Of a DNA stretch of 64,000 nucleotides, positions 22,673-50,013 are shown in pieces; positions within the stretch are counted from its first letter, which is position 1, and each line of letters begins with the position of its first letter. This stretch comes from Escherichia coli (lineage in GTDB: Bacteria > Pseudomonadota > Gammaproteobacteria > Enterobacterales > Enterobacteriaceae): NCBI RefSeq assembly GCF_022846255.1, contig NZ_AP025682.1, one strand, 5' to 3'. The notes below the pieces were generated by a model that made no database searches, was not told the DNA's origin, and saw nothing but the letters and a program-made list of their open reading frames with translations. A program made the position numbers and the translations under genes.

Positions 22673-23749
<1,077 letters not shown>

Positions 23750-23768
23750 TTACATATTGTTTTCTTAT

Positions 23769-23785
23769 TGTGATCAAAAACAACA
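23769..23785. promoter_or_regulatory. Putative cAMP-CRP site in the csiD promoter
   Basis: TGTGATCAAAAACAACA (one good TGTGA/TCACA half-site) about 120-135 bp upstream of the csiD ATG; csiD is known to be CRP- and sigmaS-dependent. Confidence 0.3.
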
Positions 23786-24178
23786 AATTAATAACAAATA
23801 ATGTGAGGGATAAGAATTGGGTTGAAAGGAAATGAATAATTAAAACAATATATTAAGTGTGCTTATACTCTTTTTCGAACTGGTGGCATTTGTTTAAATG
23901 CTATTTAAACTGCTTTTCCAGAGTTCAACTTACTGAGTTCCGTGTCGACTAATGTGAGTAAGATCAATCGCATCCAACCTATGTTACTTGATGGAATCGA
24001 TAACAATATTAATGAATATACAGATTCCGGGAAGGCTGGCTATGGGGGCAAATTATTCTCTTTCTGGCAACAGGTAAATAACAGTGACCATTTGTCGAGA
24101 AGCTGATACTAAGCTGAGGGATACTGTATATGTCTGGACTGTAATTGGATGAATTCTATTCAGGGCGGGTCAGGACCA

Positions 24179-24204
24179 ATAAAAAAGCCCGCATCAGCGG
24201 GCTT
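24179..24204 (-). terminator. ssrA intrinsic terminator
   Basis: Minus strand AAAGCCCGC-TGAT-GCGGGCTTTTTTATT, about 130 nt downstream of the tmRNA 3' CCA. Confidence 0.7.
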
Positions 24205-24332
24205 TAATGTCATAGGGAGTCGCGACTCCGTTGCGTATCCTTTTTTGTCTCCTCACCGTCTGGTCGGTGTCCTGCTGAGACTTATAACTTCCTGTTTTTG
24301 TTGGTGTAGTCCTTACACCGTCCAATCATGAT

Positions 24333-24695
24333 TGGTGGAGCTGGCGGGAGTTGAACCCGCGTCCGAAATTCCTACATCCTCGGTACTACATGCTTAGTCA
24401 GTCTTTACATTCGCTTGCCAGCTGCGGACGGACACGCCACTAACAAACTAGCCTGATTAAGTTTTAACGCTTCAACCCCAGGCAGGGCTTCCACGCGATC
24501 TCTTTTGGGTTTGACCTCTCTTGATCCCCGTCCTAAGAGCGGAGGCTAGGGAGAGAGGGCTCTAAGCAGGTTATTAAGCTGCTAAAGCGTAGTTTTCGTC
24601 GTTTGCGACTATTTTTTGCGGCTTTTTACGAGGCCAACCGCCCCTCGGCATGCACCTTGGGTTTCGCAAATCCCGTCGAATCCAGAATCAGCCCC
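24333..24695 (-). ncRNA. ssrA: tmRNA (SsrA, 363 nt)
   Basis: Minus strand runs GGGGCUGAUUCUGGAUUCGACGGG ... GGUUCAACUCCCGCCAGCUCCACCA; tag reading frame 24574-24606 encodes ANDENYALAA. Confidence 0.97.
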
Positions 24696-26279: not shown

Positions 26280-26340
26280 CAGACAGAAAAAAGGTGCTCA
26301 TTGAGCACCTTTTTTAACGTCTTTGAGAGCAACTTTATGA

Positions 26341-37793: not shown

Positions 37794-38301
37794 TTTTCTT
37801 CCGTGCGAGCATTAAGACATCCGGGTTGACCTTTACACCGCTACGCGATAAGGCATCCAGGTTTACGGCAAATCTGACGTCATTATTGTGGATGATCAGA
37901 CAAAAGGCGCTACCAATAATGCACTCGGTATTTTGTTCGGCAATTAATAATAACGCCTTTGACGGATATTGTTCGGTTAATTCCATCTGGAATGTCGGTG
38001 ACTCGTTGCCAAAATAAAAACCATTGCAGCCTGAAATTATCGCCTCTTGTTGAGTATGAATGATGACAGGCAGATAAGGTAAAGATGTAGCAGCATTTTC
38101 TTGTAAGGCGGTACTAAAACGTGAAGATGAAAAGATACATAACTTTGGTGGCCCTGATAGCCCAGGCCAGCGGGTGTAACTGACAATACCGGAAACCATC
38201 ATACGCACGTTTTTCGCAACGTCAGAAGGTTCCTGAGCGAGTATTGGTGCTCCCGTCAGCAGGAGAATCAGCAGTAAGAACAGTCGGTGAGAAAAACGCA
38301 T
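37783..38301 (-). CDS. yfiR: Periplasmic repressor of DgcN, YfiR (172 aa)
   Basis: Signal peptide; overlaps the dgcN start by 11 nt; first gene of yfiRNB. Confidence 0.9.
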
Positions 38302-38449
38302 TCAGGGATCCTCACCATCTTCGCTCGAAATGCATCGATATTTTTTCAGAATGCTCATTAAAATATCATCCTTTCATGCGGTCGTCATCAATGTGAGAAA
38401 TAAAACATAATGAGTAAAATCTCATGCTTAATTGATTTTGGGGGGGTAA

Positions 38450-38815
38450 TTAATTTAATCGTATTGTGCTGGCATTTTCATCAGCCCCTTTTCGCCATAC
38501 TTCATGCAGTTGGCTGGCATTTTCAACATTATTGCAGCTGGCAGGAAAGCTTTTACCAGAAAGTCCCCGGGCATAAGTAAAATCGGTCTGGCAAGTTTTC
38601 TTTTGCCCTTCGGCATATCCTTTAAGGTATAGACCGCGATCCGCCTGTGAATCGCTAAATGCATCGTCATCTTTAATGGCGCTGCCCGATATCGCATCTT
38701 CCATACCAACATCATACCAGTCGGTGCTGGTCAAGGTTGGCGCGTGAGTATAAGGATCAATCTGACATCCGCTAACCAGTAAAGCCAACAAGGGGGCGAT
38801 AAATTTTTTCATCAT
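38450..38815 (-). CDS. yfiL: Lipoprotein YfiL (121 aa)
   Basis: Signal peptide with lipobox LVSGC; start set at MMKKFIAP... Confidence 0.75.
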   Translation of the reverse strand: MMKKFIAPLLALLVSGCQIDPYTHAPTLTSTDWYDVGMEDAISGSAIKDDDAFSDSQADRGLYLKGYAEGQKKTCQTDFTYARGLSGKSFPASCNNVENASQLHEVWRKGADENASTIRLN

Positions 38816-38860
38816 TTCTTTCTCCTTTTTCAAAGCATAGCGGATTGTTTTTAAAGCTGG

Positions 38861-38930
38861 TGTAAATTTATTTATACAGAAATAAGGGGAAAAAGCGCGA
38901 ATAAATTGCTTATGTAAAGAAATATGTACG
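38861..38930. promoter_or_regulatory. TyrR boxes in the aroF-tyrA promoter
   Basis: TGTAAATTTATTTATACA (38861-38878) and TGTAAAGAAATATGTACG (38913-38930) fit TGTAAA-N6-TTTACA; a weaker third box may lie at 38941-38960. Confidence 0.65.
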
Positions 38931-39024
38931 AAATATGGATTGAAAACTTTACTTTATGTGTTATCGTTACGTCATCCTCGCTGAGGATCAACTATCGCAA
39001 ACGAGCATAAACAGGATCGCCATC

Positions 39025-40095
39025 ATGCAGAAAGACGCGCTGAATAACGTACATATTACCGCCGAACAGGTTTTAATGACTCCGGAACAACTGAAGGCCG
39101 CTTTTCCATTAAGCCTGCAACAAGAAGCCCAGATTGCTGACTCGCGTAAAACCATTTCAGATATTATCGCCGGGCGCGATCCTCGTCTGCTGGTAGTATG
39201 TGGTCCTTGTTCCATTCATGATCCGGAAACTGCTCTGGAATATGCTCGTCGATTTAAAGCCCTTGCCGCAGAGGTCAGCGATAGCCTCTATCTGGTAATG
39301 CGCGTCTATTTTGAAAAACCCCGTACCACTGTCGGCTGGAAAGGGTTAATTAACGATCCCCATATGGATGGCTCTTTTGATGTAGAAGCCGGGCTGCAGA
39401 TCGCGCGTAAATTGCTGCTTGAGCTGGTGAATATGGGACTGCCACTGGCGACGGAAGCGTTAGATCCGAATAGCCCGCAATACCTGGGCGATCTGTTTAG
39501 CTGGTCAGCAATTGGTGCTCGTACAACGGAATCGCAAACTCACCGTGAAATGGCCTCCGGGCTTTCCATGCCGGTTGGTTTTAAAAACGGCACCGACGGC
39601 AGTCTGGCAACGGCAATTAACGCTATGCGTGCCGCCGCCCAGCCGCACCGTTTTGTTGGCATTAACCAGGCAGGGCAGGTTGCGTTGCTACAAACTCAGG
39701 GGAATCCGGACGGGCATGTGATCCTGCGCGGTGGTAAAGCGCCAAACTATAGCCCTGCGGATGTTGCGCAATGTGAAAAAGAGATGGAACAGGCGGGACT
39801 GCGCCCGTCTCTGATGGTAGATTGCAGCCACGGTAATTCCAATAAAGATTATCGCCGTCAGCCTGCGGTGGCAGAATCCGTGGTTGCTCAAATCAAAGAT
39901 GGCAATCGCTCAATTATTGGTCTGATGATCGAAAGTAATATCCACGAGGGCAATCAGTCTTCCGAGCAACCGCGCAGTGAAATGAAATACGGTGTATCCG
40001 TAACCGATGCCTGCATTAGCTGGGAAATGACCGATGCCTTGCTGCGTGAAATTCATCAGGATCTGAACGGGCAGCTGACGGCTCGCGTGGCTTAA
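39025..40095 (+). CDS. aroF: Tyr-sensitive DAHP synthase AroF (356 aa)
   Basis: Translation recognised; start at [11 protein letters not shown]..., 23 codons inside the ORF-track start. Confidence 0.95.
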
Positions 40096-40105
40096 GAGGT
40101 TTATT

Positions 40106-41227
40106 ATGGTTGCTGAATTGACCGCATTACGCGATCAAATTGATGAAGTCGATAAAGCGCTGCTGAATTTATTAGCGAAGCGTCTGGAACTGGTTGCTGA
40201 AGTGGGCGAGGTGAAAAGCCGCTTTGGACTGCCTATTTATGTTCCGGAGCGCGAGGCATCTATGTTGGCCTCGCGTCGTGCAGAGGCGGAAGCTCTGGGT
40301 GTACCGCCAGATCTGATTGAGGATGTTTTGCGTCGGGTGATGCGTGAATCTTACTCCAGTGAAAACGACAAAGGATTTAAAACGCTTTGTCCGTCACTGC
40401 GCCCGGTGGTTATCGTCGGTGGTGGCGGTCAGATGGGACGTCTGTTCGAGAAGATGCTGACACTCTCGGGTTATCAGGTGCGGATTCTGGAGCAACATGA
40501 CTGGGATCGAGCGGCTGATATTGTTTCCGATGCCGGAATGGTGATTGTTAGTGTGCCCATCCACGTTACTGAGCAAGTTATCGGCAAATTACCGCCTTTA
40601 CCGAAAGATTGTATTCTGGTTGATCTGGCATCGGTGAAAAATGGACCATTACAGGCCATGCTGGCGGCGCACGATGGCCCGGTGCTGGGGTTACACCCGA
40701 TGTTCGGCCCGGACAGCGGTAGCCTGGCAAAGCAAGTTGTGGTCTGGTGTGATGGACGTAAGCCGGAAGCATACCAATGGTTTCTGGAGCAAATTCAGGT
40801 CTGGGGCGCTCGGTTGCATCGTATTAGCGCTGTCGAGCACGATCAGAATATGGCGTTTATTCAGGCTCTGCGCCACTTTGCTACTTTTGCTTATGGGCTG
40901 CACCTGGCAGAAGAAAATGTTCAGCTTGAGCAACTACTGGCGCTCTCTTCGCCGATTTACCGCCTTGAGCTGGCGATGGTCGGGCGACTGTTTGCTCAGG
41001 ATCCGCAGCTTTATGCCGACATTATTATGTCGTCAGAGCGTAATCTGGCGTTAATCAAACGTTACTATAAGCGTTTCGGCGAGGCGATTGAGCTGCTGGA
41101 GCAGGGCGATAAGCAGGCGTTTATTGACAGTTTCCGCAAGGTGGAGCACTGGTTCGGCGATTACGCACAGCGTTTTCAGAGTGAAAGCCGCGTGTTATTG
41201 CGTCAGGCGAATGACAATCGCCAGTAA
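40106..41227 (+). CDS. tyrA: Bifunctional chorismate mutase / prephenate dehydrogenase TyrA (373 aa)
   Basis: Translation recognised; 10 bp downstream of aroF. Confidence 0.95.
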
Positions 41228-41269
41228 TAATCCAGTGCCGGATGATTCACATCATCCGGCACTTTTTCA

Positions 41270-42430
41270 TCAGGTTGGATCAACAGGCACTACGTTCTCA
41301 CTTGGGTAACAGCCCAATACCTTCATCGAACGGGTGATTTCCCCTAACTCTTTCAATGCTTTTTGCATTTCCGCTGATTCAAGATTGGCCTGAATATCCA
41401 GATAAAACATCTCTTCCCACGGATTACCGTGAATCGGACGTGATTCCAGACGGGTCATAATCAGACTGTGATTGCGCAGTACCAGCAACGCTTCAACCAG
41501 TGCACCAGCTTGTTGTCCGGTCGCCATTAACAACGTCGTTTTCGCCGGAACCTGGTCAGAAACGTTAATGGCTTTACGTGCCAACACCACAAATCGGGTG
41601 AAGTTTTGTCGCTGATTCGCTTCAATACGCTCCAGTACCTGCAAACCGTACAAAGTGCCGCCAGCTTCGCTTCCCAACGCAGCAACATGCGGTGATTTTG
41701 CCTGTGCAACCTTTTCCATTGCCGCAGACGTACTTTCGGTATATTCAATCTTCCAGTGCGGATAACGATTAAGGAATTTGCTGCATTGCTGGAATGGCTG
41801 CGGATGGCTGTAGACCGTATTGATGGCGGATAAATCAGTAGTGCCGGAGACCAACAAACAATGATCGATAGTTAACGTCATCTCGCCAACAATCGACAAA
41901 CTGGTATGTTGCAGCAGATCGTAAACGTCGTTTATGGCACCGGAGCTGGTATTTTCAATCGGTACGACGGCATAGTCGGCCTGGCCGGTTTCCACCTGAT
42001 TAAAAATATCGGCAAATTTGGCGCAGCCACTTTCAATGAATTGCTCAAAGTGACGAGCAGCATACTGGCGCGCCGCAAGATGGGAATAAGAACCTTTGGG
42101 GCCGAGAAAAGCGATGCGTGCTGAGTGCGGATTAATTTTATTGAGATGTTGTTGGAGCAAAGCCTGCTGAGTTAATACGGAATCTTCAATGATGAGCTGG
42201 AACAGGCGAGTAATGTAATGGGCGTCCAGATGGTGCGCTTTACCGAGCGTAATTAATCTTTCCAGCAAATCGCGTTCACGATCAATATCACGTACCGGGC
42301 GATGCGAGAGCAGTTTGGCTTTTCCCACCTCGACGGCCAGTTCGCGTCGCTCTGCCAGTAATGCTAATAATTTTTCATCCAGCGCGCTGATTTTCTCTCG
42401 CAGCGCCAGTAACGGGTTTTCCGATGTCAT
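41270..42430 (-). CDS. pheA: Bifunctional chorismate mutase / prephenate dehydratase PheA (386 aa)
   Basis: Translation recognised; convergent with tyrA. Confidence 0.95.
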
Positions 42431-42454
42431 AGTGTTGCCTTTTTGTTATCAATA

Positions 42455-42482
42455 AAAAAGGCCCCCCGATTTGGGAGGCCTT
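42455..42482 (-). terminator. pheA attenuator (leader terminator)
   Basis: Minus strand AAGGCCTCCC-AAATC-GGGGGGCCTT followed by TTTTTTATT, between pheL and pheA. Confidence 0.8.
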
Positions 42483-42528
42483 ATTGTTCGTCTTCGCATT
42501 CTGTTTCACACGACGAAACGCCTCCCAT

Positions 42529-42576
42529 TCAGGGGAAGGTAAAAAAGAATGCGAAGAAAAACGGTGTGTGTTTCAT
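42529..42576 (-). CDS. pheL: pheA leader peptide PheL (15 aa, 7 Phe codons)
   Basis: Minus strand ATG AAA CAC ACA CCG TTT TTC TTC GCA TTC TTT TTT ACC TTC CCC TGA = [15 protein letters not shown]. Confidence 0.85.
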   Translation of the reverse strand: [15 protein letters not shown]

Positions 42577-42679
42577 GTTTGTTTCCTTAAGTGACTTTAG
42601 TACAGTACCCGTACTGTTTTCACGCTGTCAACAAAAAACGCGCCCGAAGGCGCGTTGGCGATACACTCAATATAAAGGA

Positions 42680-43075
<396 letters not shown>

Positions 43076-43254
43076 TCAAAATGTGTGATGGAAATCTCAT
43101 AATTTTGTCACTTTTTGTCAACGAATCTTTTTTGTGAGAAATCGCAGGAAGAGGTGTTTTTTTACTTGAGGAATATCTCAAAGCGAGCCATATTTGATGA
43201 GATCGATAGTGACTAAATCGCTTCAGTTTCACAACTAACAGAATAAAAAAACGG

Positions 43255-43267
43255 CAGCTCAAGGCTG
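43255..43267. repeat. 13-bp target-site duplication, left copy (CAGCTCAAGGCTG)
   Basis: Identical 13-mer abuts both ends of the IS4 element. Confidence 0.85.
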
Positions 43268-44693
43268 TAATGCCAGTCAGTTAAGCAACTGACTGGCTCT
43301 TTTTCGGGGCTGTGGGGTATTTCCAGGGCCTCTCCTTTACCACTCTCGGGAAGGCCCTTTCCCTTCTTGTCGGTAATTTCACAAGTTGTCCCATACTTGC
43401 AAGATCGCGCATCAGCTCCGGTATACGTCCCGGTGAAGCGCCCTGCAATGTCATCAGCATTCTCATCACCATTCCACATGATTCTGAGAAACTCAGTTGA
43501 TTCGGCCAGTAACCTTTCAGATGTTCCGCCATTTTAATCATCTGATATCTCACCAGATTATAAGCCAGTAAGACACCCCACAGCTCTTGCTCCACAAGCT
43601 CCGGTTTTTTACTTCTCAGCGTCAGCCTGCTCAGTTGCATCGTCTGTTTTATCTCCCTGTATCCCAGTTCGATTTCCCAGCGATGACTGTACAGATCCGC
43701 CATTTCTCCTCCGGGGAAGCGCATGGCGTCCGTCATCGACGTCAGCAGATGGCAGACTTTTCCTTTGCGCGTCACGGTCAGCAGGCGGGCTGTCACTTCA
43801 TTTCCCAGTCCCGGCCACTTTTTTCGTGCCTGCGGGCTGGTTTTCAGCTTCACCAGATGATCGCCTTTACCCAGTTTTCTGATCTCTTCATATTGCGCTC
43901 CCTTTCTGAGAGGTATCATCCAGTGGCGGTGTTCTCCCGCCAGGCTCCAGGCATTTAACAGTCCCAGTGAGTAATAACCTTTATCCATTAACGTCAGAGT
44001 GTTATCGCCGGTTTGTTCTATAAGTTGCTCAGCAAGCTCATTTTCGCTGTTCTTCATCGTGCCGAAGGCTGCAGCCGTCAGCAGATGGCTGGTCAGTTCC
44101 ATCTGGCAGACCATTTTGACCTGCGGGTAGAGCGCCGGGTTCCCGGCATGTGTCTGGCGGGGGAAGGCTGCATCGTTCTCTGGTGTATCCGGTGTGCGCC
44201 AGAACACACCATCGATGGCCAGCAGGGTCAGGCCGCACCAGTGCGGATGCGGCGTGGCGTTATGCCAGAGCTGCGCTGTTTTCGTGAACACGCGGCGGAC
44301 AGCCTCACTTCCCAGGCGCTGGCGGGCCTGAATAACGGCACTGGGGGCAACGAAGGGGCGATTGCCCGGCAGCATGATGTCCAGGCGATTCACAATCTGG
44401 TGAAGAGGTTCTTTACGCTCAAGCGCCATGCCAACAATACACCAGACCATCATTTCGAGGGGAAGACGGCGCTTGCGTAGCGTTACAGTACCTGATTCGG
44501 CAAGGCAACGAGAGATGAGTTCGGGGTCGAGGTAATCCCCCAGAGAAGTCAGTGGGTTACGCAGAGAATCGTAACGGGATACCAGATCAAGAGCCTGTCC
44601 AATGTGCATAAAAAAATCCGGAAACAAGTGAGCGTTTCCGGATTCTTACACAGCCACTGGATCGGTCAACTGATCCTTAACTGATCGGCATTA
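43268..44693 (-). mobile_element. Insertion sequence IS4, complete (1426 bp)
   Basis: 18-bp terminal inverted repeats TAATGCCAGTCAGTTAAG / TAATGCCGATCAGTTAAG (16/18), one transposase ORF, 13-bp flanking direct repeats; length and ends match IS4 as I recall it. Confidence 0.9.
43281..44609 (-). CDS. insG: IS4 transposase InsG (442 aa)
   Basis: Translation [19 protein letters not shown]... recognised as IS4 transposase; DDE motif with the Y-x2-R-x3-E-x6-K signature ([13 protein letters not shown]). Confidence 0.9.
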
Positions 44694-44706
44694 CAGCTCA
44701 AGGCTG
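44694..44706. repeat. 13-bp target-site duplication, right copy (CAGCTCAAGGCTG)
   Basis: Identical to 43255-43267. Confidence 0.85.
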
Positions 44707-44729
44707 CCGTTTTGTGTTTCAGGTTTCTG

Positions 44730-45467
44730 TTATGTATTGCTGCTGTTTGCGGCGATGATTTTCGCTACTTTTTCAGCTTGCGCATTCATCTGCATCTGAC
44801 GGTATGCATTTTCCATCAGCGGCAGCGCATCACGCGTAGCCTGGGTATCCGGATAGTCGCGCAACATGCCTTCTACGCGGTTAACGACAGCAACCCATGC
44901 ACCACGTTCTGTATAATACTCGGCAACGGAGTATTCATATTTCGCCAGACGATCTTTCAGGAATACCAGACGTTTGGTGGCATCGGTGGTGTACTGACTG
45001 TTCGGATAGCCGCGCACCAGTTTGGAAAAGTCACTAAACGCAGCTCGTGCATGTTGAGGATCGCGATCGCTACGGTCAACGCCAAAGAACCCTTGCAGCG
45101 CACTGTCATCCAGCGCCATATTGGTCAGGCCACGCATGTACATGACATAATCGATATTCGGATGGGTCGGGTTAAGGCGAATAAAACGATCGATGGCAGC
45201 CTGTGCTAACGGCAAATCGGCGTTTTTATAGTAGGCGTAGATGAGATCCAGCTGCACCTGCTGCGAATACGGACCAAACGGATAGCGATTATCTAACGCT
45301 TCCAGTTGCGTTATTGCCTGTCTCCAGTTACCGTCCTGCAGCTTTTGTTGTGCAGTCGCGTAAATTTCATTTGGCGGATTATCAGGTACTTCTTCCTTTG
45401 ACCCCGAGCAACCCGCCAAAAACAGGCTTAGTGTGGCGGCTGCCACCAGATATTTCATGCGCGTCAT
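44730..45467 (-). CDS. bamD: Outer-membrane assembly lipoprotein BamD (YfiO, 245 aa)
   Basis: Lipobox LAGCSG and TPR-like repeats; translation recognised. Confidence 0.95.
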
Positions 45468-45601
45468 GACGTTTTGACTTTCCTCAAAATGTAATACGGG
45501 AGATTCTCTGTTCCTGCTCCCGGTTAAGACCAGCTACAATAGCACACTATATTAAACGGCAAAGCCGTAAAACCCCAACGATAAACGAAGAAGCAGTATA
45601 T

Positions 45602-46582
45602 ATGGCACAACGAGTACAGCTCACTGCAACGGTGTCCGAAAACCAACTCGGTCAACGCTTAGATCAGGCTTTGGCCGAAATGTTCCCGGATTATTCACGT
45701 TCGCGAATAAAAGAATGGATCCTCGACCAGCGCGTGCTGGTTAACGGCAAAGTTTGTGATAAGCCGAAAGAAAAAGTATTGGGTGGCGAGCAGGTGGCCA
45801 TCAACGCTGAGATTGAAGAAGAAGCGCGTTTTGAACCGCAGGATATCCCGCTGGATATCGTCTATGAAGATGAAGATATCATCGTCATTAATAAACCGCG
45901 CGACCTGGTGGTACATCCTGGCGCGGGTAACCCGGATGGTACGGTACTGAATGCGTTGCTTCATTACTATCCGCCCATTGCCGATGTACCGCGTGCGGGC
46001 ATCGTCCATCGTCTGGATAAAGACACCACCGGCCTGATGGTTGTGGCAAAAACCGTTCCGGCTCAGACGCGTTTAGTCGAATCTTTGCAACGGCGTGAAA
46101 TTACTCGTGAGTATGAAGCGGTGGCAATTGGTCATATGACCGCTGGCGGTACAGTAGATGAACCAATCAGCCGCCACCCGACCAAACGTACTCACATGGC
46201 GGTGCATCCGATGGGTAAACCGGCGGTCACTCACTATCGCATCATGGAACACTTCCGTGTGCACACGCGTCTGCGGTTGCGTCTGGAAACTGGACGTACG
46301 CACCAGATCCGCGTGCATATGGCCCATATCACTCATCCGCTGGTGGGCGATCCGGTTTATGGTGGCCGTCCGCGTCCGCCAAAAGGTGCTTCGGAAGCGT
46401 TTATCTCCACGCTGCGTAAGTTTGACCGCCAGGCGCTTCATGCAACCATGCTGCGTCTTTATCACCCGATCTCCGGTATCGAAATGGAATGGCATGCGCC
46501 TATTCCACAAGATATGGTGGAGCTGATTGAGGTGATGCGCGCCGATTTCGAAGAGCATAAGGATGAAGTGGACTGGTTATGA
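45602..46582 (+). CDS. rluD: 23S rRNA pseudouridine synthase RluD (326 aa)
   Basis: S4 domain plus RluA-family catalytic motif (HRLDKDTTGLMVVAK); translation recognised. Confidence 0.95.
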   Translation: MAQRVQLTATVSENQLGQRLDQALAEMFPDYSRSRIKEWILDQRVLVNGKVCDKPKEKVLGGEQVAINAEIEEEARFEPQDIPLDIVYEDEDIIVINKPRDLVVHPGAGNPDGTVLNALLHYYPPIADVPRAGIVHRLDKDTTGLMVVAKTVPAQTRLVESLQRREITREYEAVAIGHMTAGGTVDEPISRHPTKRTHMAVHPMGKPAVTHYRIMEHFRVHTRLRLRLETGRTHQIRVHMAHITHPLVGDPVYGGRPRPPKGASEAFISTLRKFDRQALHATMLRLYHPISGIEMEWHAPIPQDMVELIEVMRADFEEHKDEVDWL

Positions 46583-47310
46583 GTAAGCTGATTGTCCCGC
46601 AGTGGCCGCTGCCAAAAGGTGTTGCGGCCTGTAGCTCTACCCGTATCGGCGGCGTGAGCTTGCCGCCTTACGACTCTCTCAACCTTGGCGCTCATTGTGG
46701 TGATAACCCGGATCACGTTGAGGAGAATCGCAAGCGACTTTTTGCTGCGGGCAATTTGCCTTCTAAACCGGTCTGGCTTGAGCAGGTACACGGCAAAGAT
46801 GTGCTTAAGCTTACTGGTGAACCTTATGCCTCAAAACGAGCAGATGCCTCTTATAGCAATACGCCCGGCACGGTTTGCGCAGTGATGACTGCCGATTGCC
46901 TCCCTGTGCTGTTTTGCAATCGAGCGGGAACGGAAGTCGCCGCCGCTCATGCTGGCTGGCGTGGACTGTGCGCAGGCGTGCTGGAAGAGACGGTTTCCTG
47001 TTTTGCTGATAATCCGGAAAATATTCTCGCCTGGTTAGGGCCGGCAATTGGTCCACGCGCGTTTGAAGTGGGGGCGGAGGTTCGCGAGGCGTTTATGGCA
47101 GTAGACGCCAAAGCGAGTACAGCTTTCATTCAGCATGGTGATAAGTATCTGGCGGATATTTATCAGCTTGCCCGGCAGCGTCTGGCGAGCGTTGGTGTTG
47201 AACAAATTTTCGGCGGCGACCGTTGTACATATACGGAAAATGAGACTTTCTTCTCTTATCGTCGCGACAAGACCACCGGTCGTATGGCAAGTTTCATTTG
47301 GCTGATATAA
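46579..47310 (+). CDS. pgeF: Purine nucleoside phosphorylase / peptidoglycan editing factor PgeF (YfiH, 243 aa)
   Basis: Translation recognised; overlaps the rluD stop by 4 nt. Confidence 0.9.
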   Translation: MSKLIVPQWPLPKGVAACSSTRIGGVSLPPYDSLNLGAHCGDNPDHVEENRKRLFAAGNLPSKPVWLEQVHGKDVLKLTGEPYASKRADASYSNTPGTVCAVMTADCLPVLFCNRAGTEVAAAHAGWRGLCAGVLEETVSCFADNPENILAWLGPAIGPRAFEVGAEVREAFMAVDAKASTAFIQHGDKYLADIYQLARQRLASVGVEQIFGGDRCTYTENETFFSYRRDKTTGRMASFIWLI

Positions 47311-47373
47311 CCTAAAGAATCAAGACGATCCGGTACGCGTGATTTTCTTTTCACATTAATCTGGTCAATAACC

Positions 47374-47401
47374 TTGAATAATTGAGGGATGACCTCATTT
47401 A
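47374..47401 (+). promoter_or_regulatory. clpB sigma32 heat-shock promoter
   Basis: CTTGAA (47374-47379), 13-bp spacer, CCTCATTTA (47393-47401), about 40 bp upstream of the clpB ATG. Confidence 0.65.
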
Positions 47402-47439
47402 ATCTCCAGTAGCAACTTTGATCCGTTATGGGAGGAGTT

Positions 47440-50013
47440 ATGCGTCTGGATCGTCTTACTAATAAATTCCAGCTTGCTCTTGCCGATGCCCAATCACTTG
47501 CACTCGGGCACGACAACCAATTCATCGAACCACTTCATTTAATGAGCGCCCTGCTGAATCAGGAAGGGGGTTCGGTTAGTCCTTTATTAACATCCGCTGG
47601 CATAAATGCTGGCCAGTTGCGCACAGATATCAATCAGGCATTAAATCGTTTACCGCAGGTTGAAGGTACTGGTGGTGATGTCCAGCCATCACAGGATCTG
47701 GTGCGCGTTCTTAATCTTTGCGACAAGCTGGCGCAAAAACGTGGTGATAACTTTATCTCGTCAGAACTGTTCGTTCTGGCGGCACTTGAGTCTCGCGGCA
47801 CGCTGGCCGACATCCTGAAAGCAGCAGGGGCGACCACCGCCAACATTACTCAAGCGATTGAACAAATGCGTGGAGGTGAAAGCGTGAACGATCAAGGTGC
47901 TGAAGACCAACGTCAGGCTTTGAAAAAATATACCATCGACCTTACCGAACGAGCCGAACAAGGCAAACTCGATCCGGTGATTGGTCGTGATGAAGAAATT
48001 CGCCGTACCATTCAGGTGCTGCAACGTCGTACTAAAAATAACCCGGTATTGATTGGTGAACCCGGCGTCGGTAAAACTGCCATCGTTGAAGGTCTGGCGC
48101 AGCGTATTATCAACGGCGAAGTGCCCGAAGGGTTGAAAGGCCGCCGCGTACTGGCGCTGGATATGGGCGCGCTGGTGGCTGGGGCGAAATATCGCGGTGA
48201 GTTTGAAGAACGTTTAAAAGGCGTACTTAACGATCTTGCTAAACAGGAAGGCAACGTCATCCTGTTTATCGACGAATTACATACCATGGTCGGCGCGGGT
48301 AAAGCCGATGGCGCAATGGACGCCGGAAACATGCTGAAACCTGCTCTGGCGCGTGGTGAATTGCACTGCGTAGGTGCCACGACGCTTGACGAATATCGCC
48401 AGTACATCGAAAAAGATGCTGCGCTGGAACGTCGTTTCCAGAAAGTGTTTGTTGCCGAGCCTTCTGTTGAAGATACCATTGCTATTCTGCGTGGCCTGAA
48501 AGAACGTTATGAGCTGCACCACCATGTGCAAATTACTGACCCGGCAATTGTTGCAGCGGCGACGTTGTCTCATCGCTACATTGCTGACCGTCAGCTGCCG
48601 GATAAAGCCATCGACCTGATCGATGAAGCAGCATCCAGCATTCGTATGCAGATTGACTCAAAACCAGAAGAACTCGACCGACTCGATCGTCGTATCATCC
48701 AGCTCAAACTGGAACAACAGGCGTTAATGAAAGAGTCTGATGAAGCCAGTAAAAAACGCCTGGATATGCTCAACGAAGAACTGAGCGACAAAGAACGTCA
48801 GTACTCCGAGTTAGAAGAAGAGTGGAAAGCAGAGAAAGCCTCGCTTTCTGGTACGCAGACCATTAAAGCGGAACTGGAACAGGCGAAAATCGCTATTGAA
48901 CAGGCTCGCCGTGTGGGTGACCTGGCGAGGATGTCTGAACTGCAATACGGCAAAATCCCGGAACTGGAAAAGCAACTGGAAGCCGCAACGCAGCTCGAAG
49001 GCAAAACTATGCGTCTGTTGCGTAATAAAGTGACCGATGCCGAAATTGCTGAAGTGCTGGCGCGTTGGACGGGAATTCCGGTTTCTCGCATGATGGAAAG
49101 CGAGCGCGAAAAACTGCTGCGTATGGAGCAAGAACTGCACCATCGCGTTATTGGTCAGAACGAAGCGGTTGATGCGGTATCTAACGCTATTCGTCGTAGC
49201 CGTGCGGGGCTGGCGGATCCAAATCGCCCGATTGGTTCATTCCTGTTTCTCGGCCCAACGGGTGTGGGGAAAACAGAGCTTTGTAAGGCGCTGGCGAACT
49301 TTATGTTTGATAGCGACGAGGCGATGGTCCGTATCGATATGTCCGAGTTTATGGAGAAACACTCGGTGTCTCGTCTGGTTGGTGCGCCTCCGGGATATGT
49401 TGGTTATGAAGAAGGTGGCTATCTGACCGAAGCGGTGCGTCGTCGTCCGTATTCCGTCATCCTGCTGGATGAAGTGGAAAAAGCGCATCCGGATGTCTTC
49501 AACATTCTGTTGCAGGTACTGGATGATGGGCGTCTGACTGACGGGCAGGGGAGAACGGTCGACTTCCGTAATACGGTCGTCATTATGACCTCTAACCTCG
49601 GTTCCGATCTGATTCAGGAACGTTTTGGTGAACTGGATTATGCGCACATGAAAGAGCTGGTGCTCGGTGTGGTAAGCCATAACTTCCGTCCGGAATTCAT
49701 TAACCGTATCGATGAAGTCGTCGTCTTCCATCCGCTGGGTGAACAACACATTGCGTCGATTGCGCAGATTCAGTTGAAACGTCTGTACAAACGTCTGGAA
49801 GAACGTGGTTATGAAATCCACATTTCTGACGAGGCGCTGAAACTGCTGAGCGAGAACGGTTACGATCCGGTCTATGGTGCACGTCCTCTGAAACGTGCTA
49901 TCCAGCAGCAGATCGAAAACCCGCTGGCACAGCAAATACTGTCTGGTGAATTGGTTCCGGGTAAAGTTATTCGCCTGGAAGTTAATGAAGACCGGATCGT
50001 CGCCGTCCAGTAA
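47440..50013 (+). CDS. clpB: Disaggregase chaperone ClpB (857 aa)
   Basis: Two AAA+ modules (GEPGVGKT and GPTGVGKT Walker A motifs); start at [10 protein letters not shown] with GGAGG 4 nt upstream. Confidence 0.97.
47884..50013 (+). other. clpB: Internal GTG start (Val149) for the N-terminally truncated ClpB isoform
   Basis: GGAGGTGA at 47872-47879 lies 4 nt before GTG 47884-47886 within clpB; a short ClpB-80 isoform starting here is established for E. coli. Confidence 0.5.

Follow-up and report, generated by a model that had tools for sequence, protein, structure and literature searches.

Here we describe a complete copy of the insertion sequence IS4 that lies between raiA and bamD in a 64-kb stretch of Escherichia coli DNA (the whole stretch is referred to hereafter as the window, and positions are counted from its first letter). 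The explanation that we favour, and to which we assign a high probability as a whole, is that a known element has entered a preferred terminator target, that this target is a recurrent hotspot, that the element supplies a substitute for the terminator that it breaks, and that the insertion is probably near-neutral. In mechanistic terms, an intact IS4 would have transposed into a palindromic target in which a GC-rich hairpin stands between an A-run and a T-run; here, this target is the predicted bamD intrinsic terminator. Each strand transfer would fall 3 bp to the inner side of one of these runs. Transfers at these positions would duplicate the upper part of the stem together with the loop (13 bp in this case) and would separate the lower stem and the runs. 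The identity and anatomy of the element, the consensus of its targets, the hotspot and the separate insertion events are documented directly by the sequences and the genome counts presented below.

Identity and anatomy of the element

IS4 occupies positions 43268–44693 on the minus strand (1,426 bp) and is 100% identical over its entire length to copies in many E. coli genomes that are annotated as 'IS4-like element IS4 family transposase'. The element is bounded by 18-bp terminal inverted repeats, termed IRL at the transposase-distal end (43268–43285, plus strand; TAATGCCAGTCAGTTAAG) and IRR at the transposase-proximal end (44676–44693, minus strand; reverse complement TAATGCCGATCAGTTAAG). 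IRL and the reverse complement of IRR are identical at 16 of 18 positions, and no further copy of either end was found in the window when up to three mismatches were allowed. The element is flanked by a 13-bp target-site duplication, CAGCTCAAGGCTG, of which the raiA-side copy (43255–43267) and the bamD-side copy (44694–44706) match perfectly; no third copy of this 13-mer exists in the 64-kb window. An earlier note, made from the sequence of the window, had delimited the element, its inverted repeats and its direct repeat in the same way, and its coordinates and sequences were confirmed. The ends of the element (TAATG......TTA) match the end signature of the IS4 subgroup, -AATR--------WTW---- (PMC2266710, Table 1), and the 13-bp duplication falls within the 10–13 bp given for that subgroup (PMC2266710). 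The window element is IS4 itself, in the form of an intact and ordinary copy. A search of 5,426 complete E. coli genomes detected IS4 in 2,686 of them, with as many as 32 places in a single genome.

The sole long open reading frame of the element encodes the transposase on the minus strand (43281–44609), the direction shared with bamD and raiA. Translated from the ATG at 44609, the protein comprises 442 residues; for the same IS4 copy in other genomes, RefSeq places the start at the TTG at 44627, which gives 448 residues. The transposase scores 304 bits against the NCBIfam model NF033592 (IS4 family transposase; cut-off 115) and matches the Pfam domains Nterm_IS4 (PF13006; 7.6e-33) and DDE_Tnp_1 (PF01609; 1.1e-31), and the Y-x2-R-x3-E-x6-K motif is located at residues 307–321. 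A single 442-residue DDE transposase bearing this motif had been proposed in the earlier note, and the reading frame, the domains and the motif starting at residue 307 all bear this out; the family-level matches, together with the 100% identity to annotated copies, likewise uphold its naming of the element as IS4. A protein identical to the window transposase occurs at many different genomic sites, which, along with the presence of as many as 32 copies in a genome, may point indirectly to cut-and-paste transposition activity; the transposase of strain CE10 is the same protein.

The IS4 copy of K-12, insG, is the type element of the IS4 family. It resembles the window copy in its length of 1,426 bp, in its 18-bp ends and in its single 442-residue transposase, and the MG1655 sequence differs from that of the window by 5 nt and 2 residues (A304G and L326R relative to InsG). 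It is the only IS4 in K-12 MG1655 and is found at a different site, at 4.50 Mb (4502090–4503515), where it is flanked by a 12-bp duplication, ATCTTGGTTCTG, and is among the weakest matches to the arm consensus described below. The raiA–bamD site of MG1655 is empty. The statement in the earlier note that MG1655 carries one IS4, at another locus, was thus accurate.

The bamD terminator and the target preference of IS4

The bamD gene (44730–45467, minus strand) ends in a TAA stop codon at 44730–44732, and 36 nt separate this stop codon from the end of IS4. The raiA gene (42680–43021, minus strand) begins with an ATG located 246 nt from the IS4 end, in agreement with the approximately 250 bp of upstream sequence estimated previously. 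Removal of the element and of one repeat reconstructs the empty site as AAAAAAACGGCAGCTCAAGGCTGCCGTTTTG. On the minus strand, this sequence forms an 11-bp stem with a 5-nt loop and a U7 tail (core −17 kcal/mol), and the 61-nt context of the empty site folds with −22.1 kcal/mol (z = −5.2; 0 of 200 shuffles fold as well). The empty site thus folds as a canonical terminator, and the insertion splits what looks like a canonical bamD intrinsic terminator. This split had been predicted in the earlier note and is borne out by the reconstruction and folding. The hairpin and U-run that it described were also recovered in the rebuilt fold (with U7), but its starting point, given as 12 bp after the bamD stop, was not: the 30-mer starts 15 nt, and the terminator stem 16 nt, after the stop codon. 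Of the lower stem, the 5′ half is retained at 44707–44713 (minus strand; AAAACGG), and the displaced 3′ half of the terminator (43245–43254, minus strand; lower stem CCG and U7) is now found downstream of IS4.

Since IS elements are a common source of misassembly, an IS4 copy misplaced between raiA and bamD during assembly has to be weighed, and the best complete RefSeq match to window positions 38000–50000, FDAARGOS_1260 (99.7% over 12 kb), may be counted on the same side. However, the 13-bp duplication is perfect, DSM 30083 and other strains have an empty site that matches the rebuilt one at 100% over 352 bp, and the same 48-nt junction is present in 39 independently assembled complete genomes. 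An assembly artefact has next to no probability in our estimation and was rejected on account of the perfect duplication and the 39 assemblies that share the junction.

The placement of this genuine insertion was compared with that of other IS4 copies. We assembled a set of 19 distinct IS4 sites associated with the same or a near-identical transposase and parsed their flanks. The sites share one architecture, which consists of an A-run (5–6), 3 nt, the 11–14 bp that become duplicated, 3 nt and a T-run (5–6). The 3-nt spacers are mostly G/C, with positions −3 to −1 almost never being A; of the 38 arms, 35 have an A at position −5, 32 at position −6 and 32 at position −4. Thirteen of the 19 sites fold at −10 kcal/mol or below. 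The remaining 6 fold weakly, which suggests that the A/T-run arms, rather than the hairpin itself, may be recognised. About 12 of the 19 sites are located 26–80 nt past a stop codon (adhE, aroA, eno, lipA/tatE, accA, malP, glmS and mukB, among others).

A log-odds matrix was derived from 18 of these sites, raiA–bamD being left out, and was used to scan the window from which IS4 had been removed (62.5 kb). Position 43255, combined with a duplication length of 13, ranked first in the 62.5 kb with 21.7 bits; the element is thus placed as predicted by the target preference of IS4. The runner-up, cagaaaaaaggtGCTCATTGAGCaccttttttaac at 26284–26318 (26296; 20.9 bits), is a terminator-like palindrome that is unoccupied.

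Elsewhere in the window, about 680 nt separate ssrA (tmRNA; 24333–24695, minus strand) from the gene series that comes after it, glaH-lhgO-gabDTP-csiR (window positions 23650–24695). In K-12, the CP4-57 prophage is integrated next to ssrA. A prophage in the corresponding place in the window was considered and rejected, as glaH follows directly.

Two of the genomes that carry IS4 elsewhere display features of their own. In GCA_000714895.1, IS4 is found 36 nt after the glmS stop codon, in a terminator-like palindrome (in order, AAAAAAGGGC, CACCGGTCGGCAG and CCCTTTTTT), and thereby shares its neighbourhood with the Tn7 attachment site. In GCA_052122925.1, neither of two IS4 copies has a duplication and their flanks are exchanged (aroA–mukB and ldtD–ycaL), an arrangement that reads as the signature of a chromosomal inversion, with IS4 × IS4 recombination apparently having taken place at the aroA–ycaL and mukB–ldtD terminators.

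That IS4 has a symmetric target with A/T arms is old knowledge. The classical target studies are those of Mayaux and colleagues in 1984 and of Klaer, Habermann and Starlinger, and the former reportedly derived the consensus AAA-N20-TTT from IS4 inserted in the attenuator of pheST. The placement in the window agrees with this consensus. Hallet and colleagues are said to have described, in 1994, a target for IS231A that consists of GGG-N5-CCC flanked by A/T tracts, in the terminal region of Tn4430. IS231A, from Bacillus thuringiensis, is also a member of the IS4 family and is similar to IS4 in having a symmetric target with a GC core and A- and T-rich arms. By contrast, it belongs to a different subgroup and to a different host, and the link to chromosomal intrinsic terminators and the variable 11–14-bp duplication are noted here for IS4. 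The duplication made by IS231A corresponds to about one helical turn, 10–12 bp (PMC2266710, Table 1).

Residence in 'safe harbours', that is, in extragenic palindromes just past genes where no gene is disrupted, is a trait that IS4 has in common with IS1397/ISKpn1 and with Tn7. Tn7 inserts downstream of glmS. IS1397/ISKpn1 target REP/BIME palindromes (PMC1525189). These elements differ from IS4 in that they use other transposase families and other recognition mechanisms; what is read by IS4 is the A/T-run arms, as opposed to REP sequences or an attachment site that is protein-coding.

Recurrent occupancy of the raiA–bamD site

Occupancy of the site was surveyed in the 5,426 complete E. coli genomes, a set to which the window's own genome is external. 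IS4 is inserted in the raiA–bamD hairpin in the orientation of the window in 336 of these genomes (both junctions) and in the opposite orientation in 70, including CE10 and IAI39. The hairpin is thus occupied in one orientation or the other in 406 of 5,426 genomes (7.5%). The site is intact and empty in 5,009 genomes and split in 416, and roughly 10 of the split sites match neither orientation query. Public annotation already records both the element and its raiA–bamD insertion site, in hundreds of genomes. The exact junction of the window (48 nt) is found in 39 complete genomes. The view taken in the earlier note, that the insertion is strain-specific, thus stands relative to K-12, where the site is empty, but fails for the species overall, given the 39 genomes with the exact junction and the 406 with an occupied hairpin.

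The loop of the hairpin is polymorphic among the nine loci that were inspected, with a window type (...AAGGCTG) and a K-12 type (...AAGGGCTG), and at every inspected locus the local loop allele is present in both copies of the duplication. On the GG allele, a 13-bp duplication is associated with IS4 both in the window orientation (window and AR_0077) and in the opposite orientation (CE10). On the GGG allele, a 14-bp duplication is likewise seen in the window orientation (O121 and GPEC1031) and in the opposite one (N3 and S1-ZIM-01-A), and a third arrangement, in VR50, combines the window orientation with a 12-bp duplication. The 14-bp duplication is found where the loop has one extra G, and it exceeds the 10–13 bp given for the IS4 subgroup (PMC2266710). 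Genomes were assigned to classes by means of junction-specific queries of 46–48 nt, for which the other classes offer no 28-nt seed; the VR50-type junction (GGG, 12 bp) is found in 15–17 genomes and the opposite orientation on the GG allele in 38.

Read together, these junction sequences indicate at least five independent IS4 insertions into the bamD terminator hairpin, which is hence a hotspot, because recombination can neither change both short repeats in step nor flip the element. This number is a minimum obtained from the nine inspected loci and the class-specific junction searches, as distinct from a phylogenetic count.

The distribution might instead stem from one ancient insertion passed on by vertical descent or disseminated through homologous recombination, in which case the site would be no hotspot. 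Most of the 336 genomes with the window orientation could indeed share ancestry, and decayed copies among the 39 genomes with the exact junction suggest that the event was old in that lineage. In RMDEC465, an internally deleted IS4 remnant of 809 bp has the same 13-bp duplication as the window, and several exact-junction genomes carry deleted or frameshifted remnants that are annotated only as 'IS4 family transposase'. These decayed copies imply that the insertion event in the lineage of the window is not recent. However, a single origin is contradicted by the occurrence of both orientations and by duplications of 12, 13 and 14 bp in which the local GG or GGG allele is always present in both copies, as recombination has no means of altering the two 13-bp copies together; in addition, no other IS4 target in the window scores as high as raiA–bamD. 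A single ancestral insertion is thus highly improbable and was rejected in view of the orientation, duplication and allele classes. Repeated insertion into a preferred target is the reading that we retain.

Some IS4 copies at this site were also compared with one another. The window copy is identical to that of CE10, which occupies this site in reverse orientation, and differs by 3 nt from that of AR_0077, which has exactly the same junction. In GPEC1031, IRL is altered to TAATGCCGATCAGTTAAG, which results in perfect inverted repeats (18/18); this copy is 1,427 bp in length and its transposase is frameshifted.

Predicted effects on transcription and wider meaning

Folding predicts that IS4 has terminator-like hairpins facing inwards at both of its ends. 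The hairpin at the left end (IRL; 43272–43304, plus strand) has an 11-bp stem followed by TCTTTTT (−18.7 kcal/mol); it is the best terminator-like match in the terminator scan and faces transcription arriving from the raiA side. The second hairpin (44610–44649, minus strand; AAUCCGGAAAC...GUUUCCGGAUU followed by U7; −20.6 kcal/mol) adjoins the transposase ATG and faces transcripts arriving from bamD, with hairpin and U7 together lying about 50–85 nt inside the bamD-proximal end of the element. This minus-strand hairpin was predicted by RNAfold and was not listed by the terminator scan. A promoter-like site that may drive the transposase gene is located at 44642–44669 on the minus strand (TTGACC, a 16-nt spacer and TG-AAGAAT). 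It is the only sigma-70-like match in a promoter scan of positions 42550–45000, and the scan of this region revealed no outward promoter leading from IS4 towards raiA.

The −10 hexamer of this promoter-like site, AAGAAT, overlaps the 5′ arm of the hairpin at 44610–44649. With the −10 inside this arm, the element's own transcripts would be made without the hairpin. It would fold in transcripts that read through from outside, and would then stop outside transcription from driving the transposase. Davis, Simons and Kleckner in 1985 and Krebs and Reznikoff in 1986 are said to have described a fold-back inhibition that protects IS10 and IS50 from outside read-through. The likeness extends to a hairpin that appears only in transcripts started outside, to its position over the transposase start and to an element promoter that starts inside the hairpin. 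IS4 differs from IS10 and IS50 in that its hairpin, as judged by sequence and folding, also has a U7 and so resembles a full intrinsic terminator.

In the window, bamD transcripts would end about 85–120 nt after the stop codon, at the IS4 hairpin and U7 upstream of the transposase ATG; where the element has the opposite orientation, the IRL hairpin would play the same role. The IS4 hairpins probably replace the broken bamD terminator. Between the transposase gene and raiA, the IRL hairpin is followed, 26 nt on, by a remnant hairpin with a 4-bp stem and U7, and weak read-through towards raiA is possible.

Upstream of raiA, a CRP-like site identified by sequence match (TGTGATGGAAATCTCA; 43084–43099) is intact despite the insertion. 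More than 165 bp separate IS4 from this site and from the adjoining TTGACA, the −35-like hexamer of raiA. CRP–cAMP control of raiA is described in literature cited by PMC8476650, and we infer that TGTGATGGAAATCTCA is the site through which this control is exerted. Downstream of raiA, the small RNA RaiZ is annotated in K-12 over the raiA 3′ end and terminator (about 42630–42800 in the window), and a Phe leader is present at 42452–42577 (Rfam match); both are untouched by IS4. Given that the raiA promoter region is intact, that the element has predicted inward terminators and that hundreds of isolates carry it at the site, in one orientation or the other, the insertion is probably near-neutral. 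The effects on raiA expression and on bamD 3′ end formation that the earlier note suggested are probably small or buffered.

A different account would have the insertion retained as an adaptation, through altered expression of raiA (ribosome hibernation) or of bamD, for example by read-through into raiA from the transposase gene or an altered 3′ UTR of bamD. At least five independent gains and occupancy in 406 of 5,426 genomes (7.5%) would be in keeping with this, as would a transposase gene that points at raiA with only the weak remnant hairpin (4-bp stem and U7) downstream. On the other hand, the insertion is found in both orientations, the scan gave no outward promoter-like site, and the CRP-like site and −35-like hexamer of raiA are both more than 165 bp from IS4. 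Moreover, other sites made of an A-run, a hairpin and a T-run (opgH–yceK, adhE–tdk, aroA–ycaL and eno) are also occupied repeatedly and in both orientations, which indicates that target preference is sufficient and that an adaptive reading is unnecessary. We regard adaptation as improbable and keep to a near-neutral insertion at a preferred target.

A stronger statement about IS4 itself, which we offer tentatively and consider somewhat unlikely, is that it is a dedicated hunter of terminator hairpins, with cuts set 3 bp inside the runs and no fixed stagger, and with its own inward terminators replacing that of the target. If this were true, the geometry of the target would dictate the length of the duplication (11–14 bp), such that an extra loop base turns 13 bp into 14 bp, and the repeated occupancy, in either orientation, of the terminator of the essential gene bamD would be explained.

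In the literature searched, we found no report of IS4 at raiA–bamD and no statement of recurrent IS4 occupancy of the bamD terminator. Nor did that literature yield a statement that cuts are made 3 bp inside the runs with the duplication length following the target spacing (14 bp included), or that terminators at the IS4 ends replace a destroyed one. The arm-measuring rule, the replacement of the terminator and the population-level hotspots may thus be stated in such form here for the first time. The three additions are modest and testable, and they do not constitute a new kind of system.

For the window itself the finding means little, as the insertion sequence is known and the site polymorphic. 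For E. coli, it means that a simple arm motif predicts the placement of IS4 very well, and this is of help in typing and comparative genomics when IS4 polymorphisms have to be interpreted. Shared IS4 sites are homoplastic, and they are of little use as clonal markers if orientation and duplication have not been verified. For the transposases, terminator variants would provide a cheap experimental system in which to follow stagger variation of a DDE enzyme.
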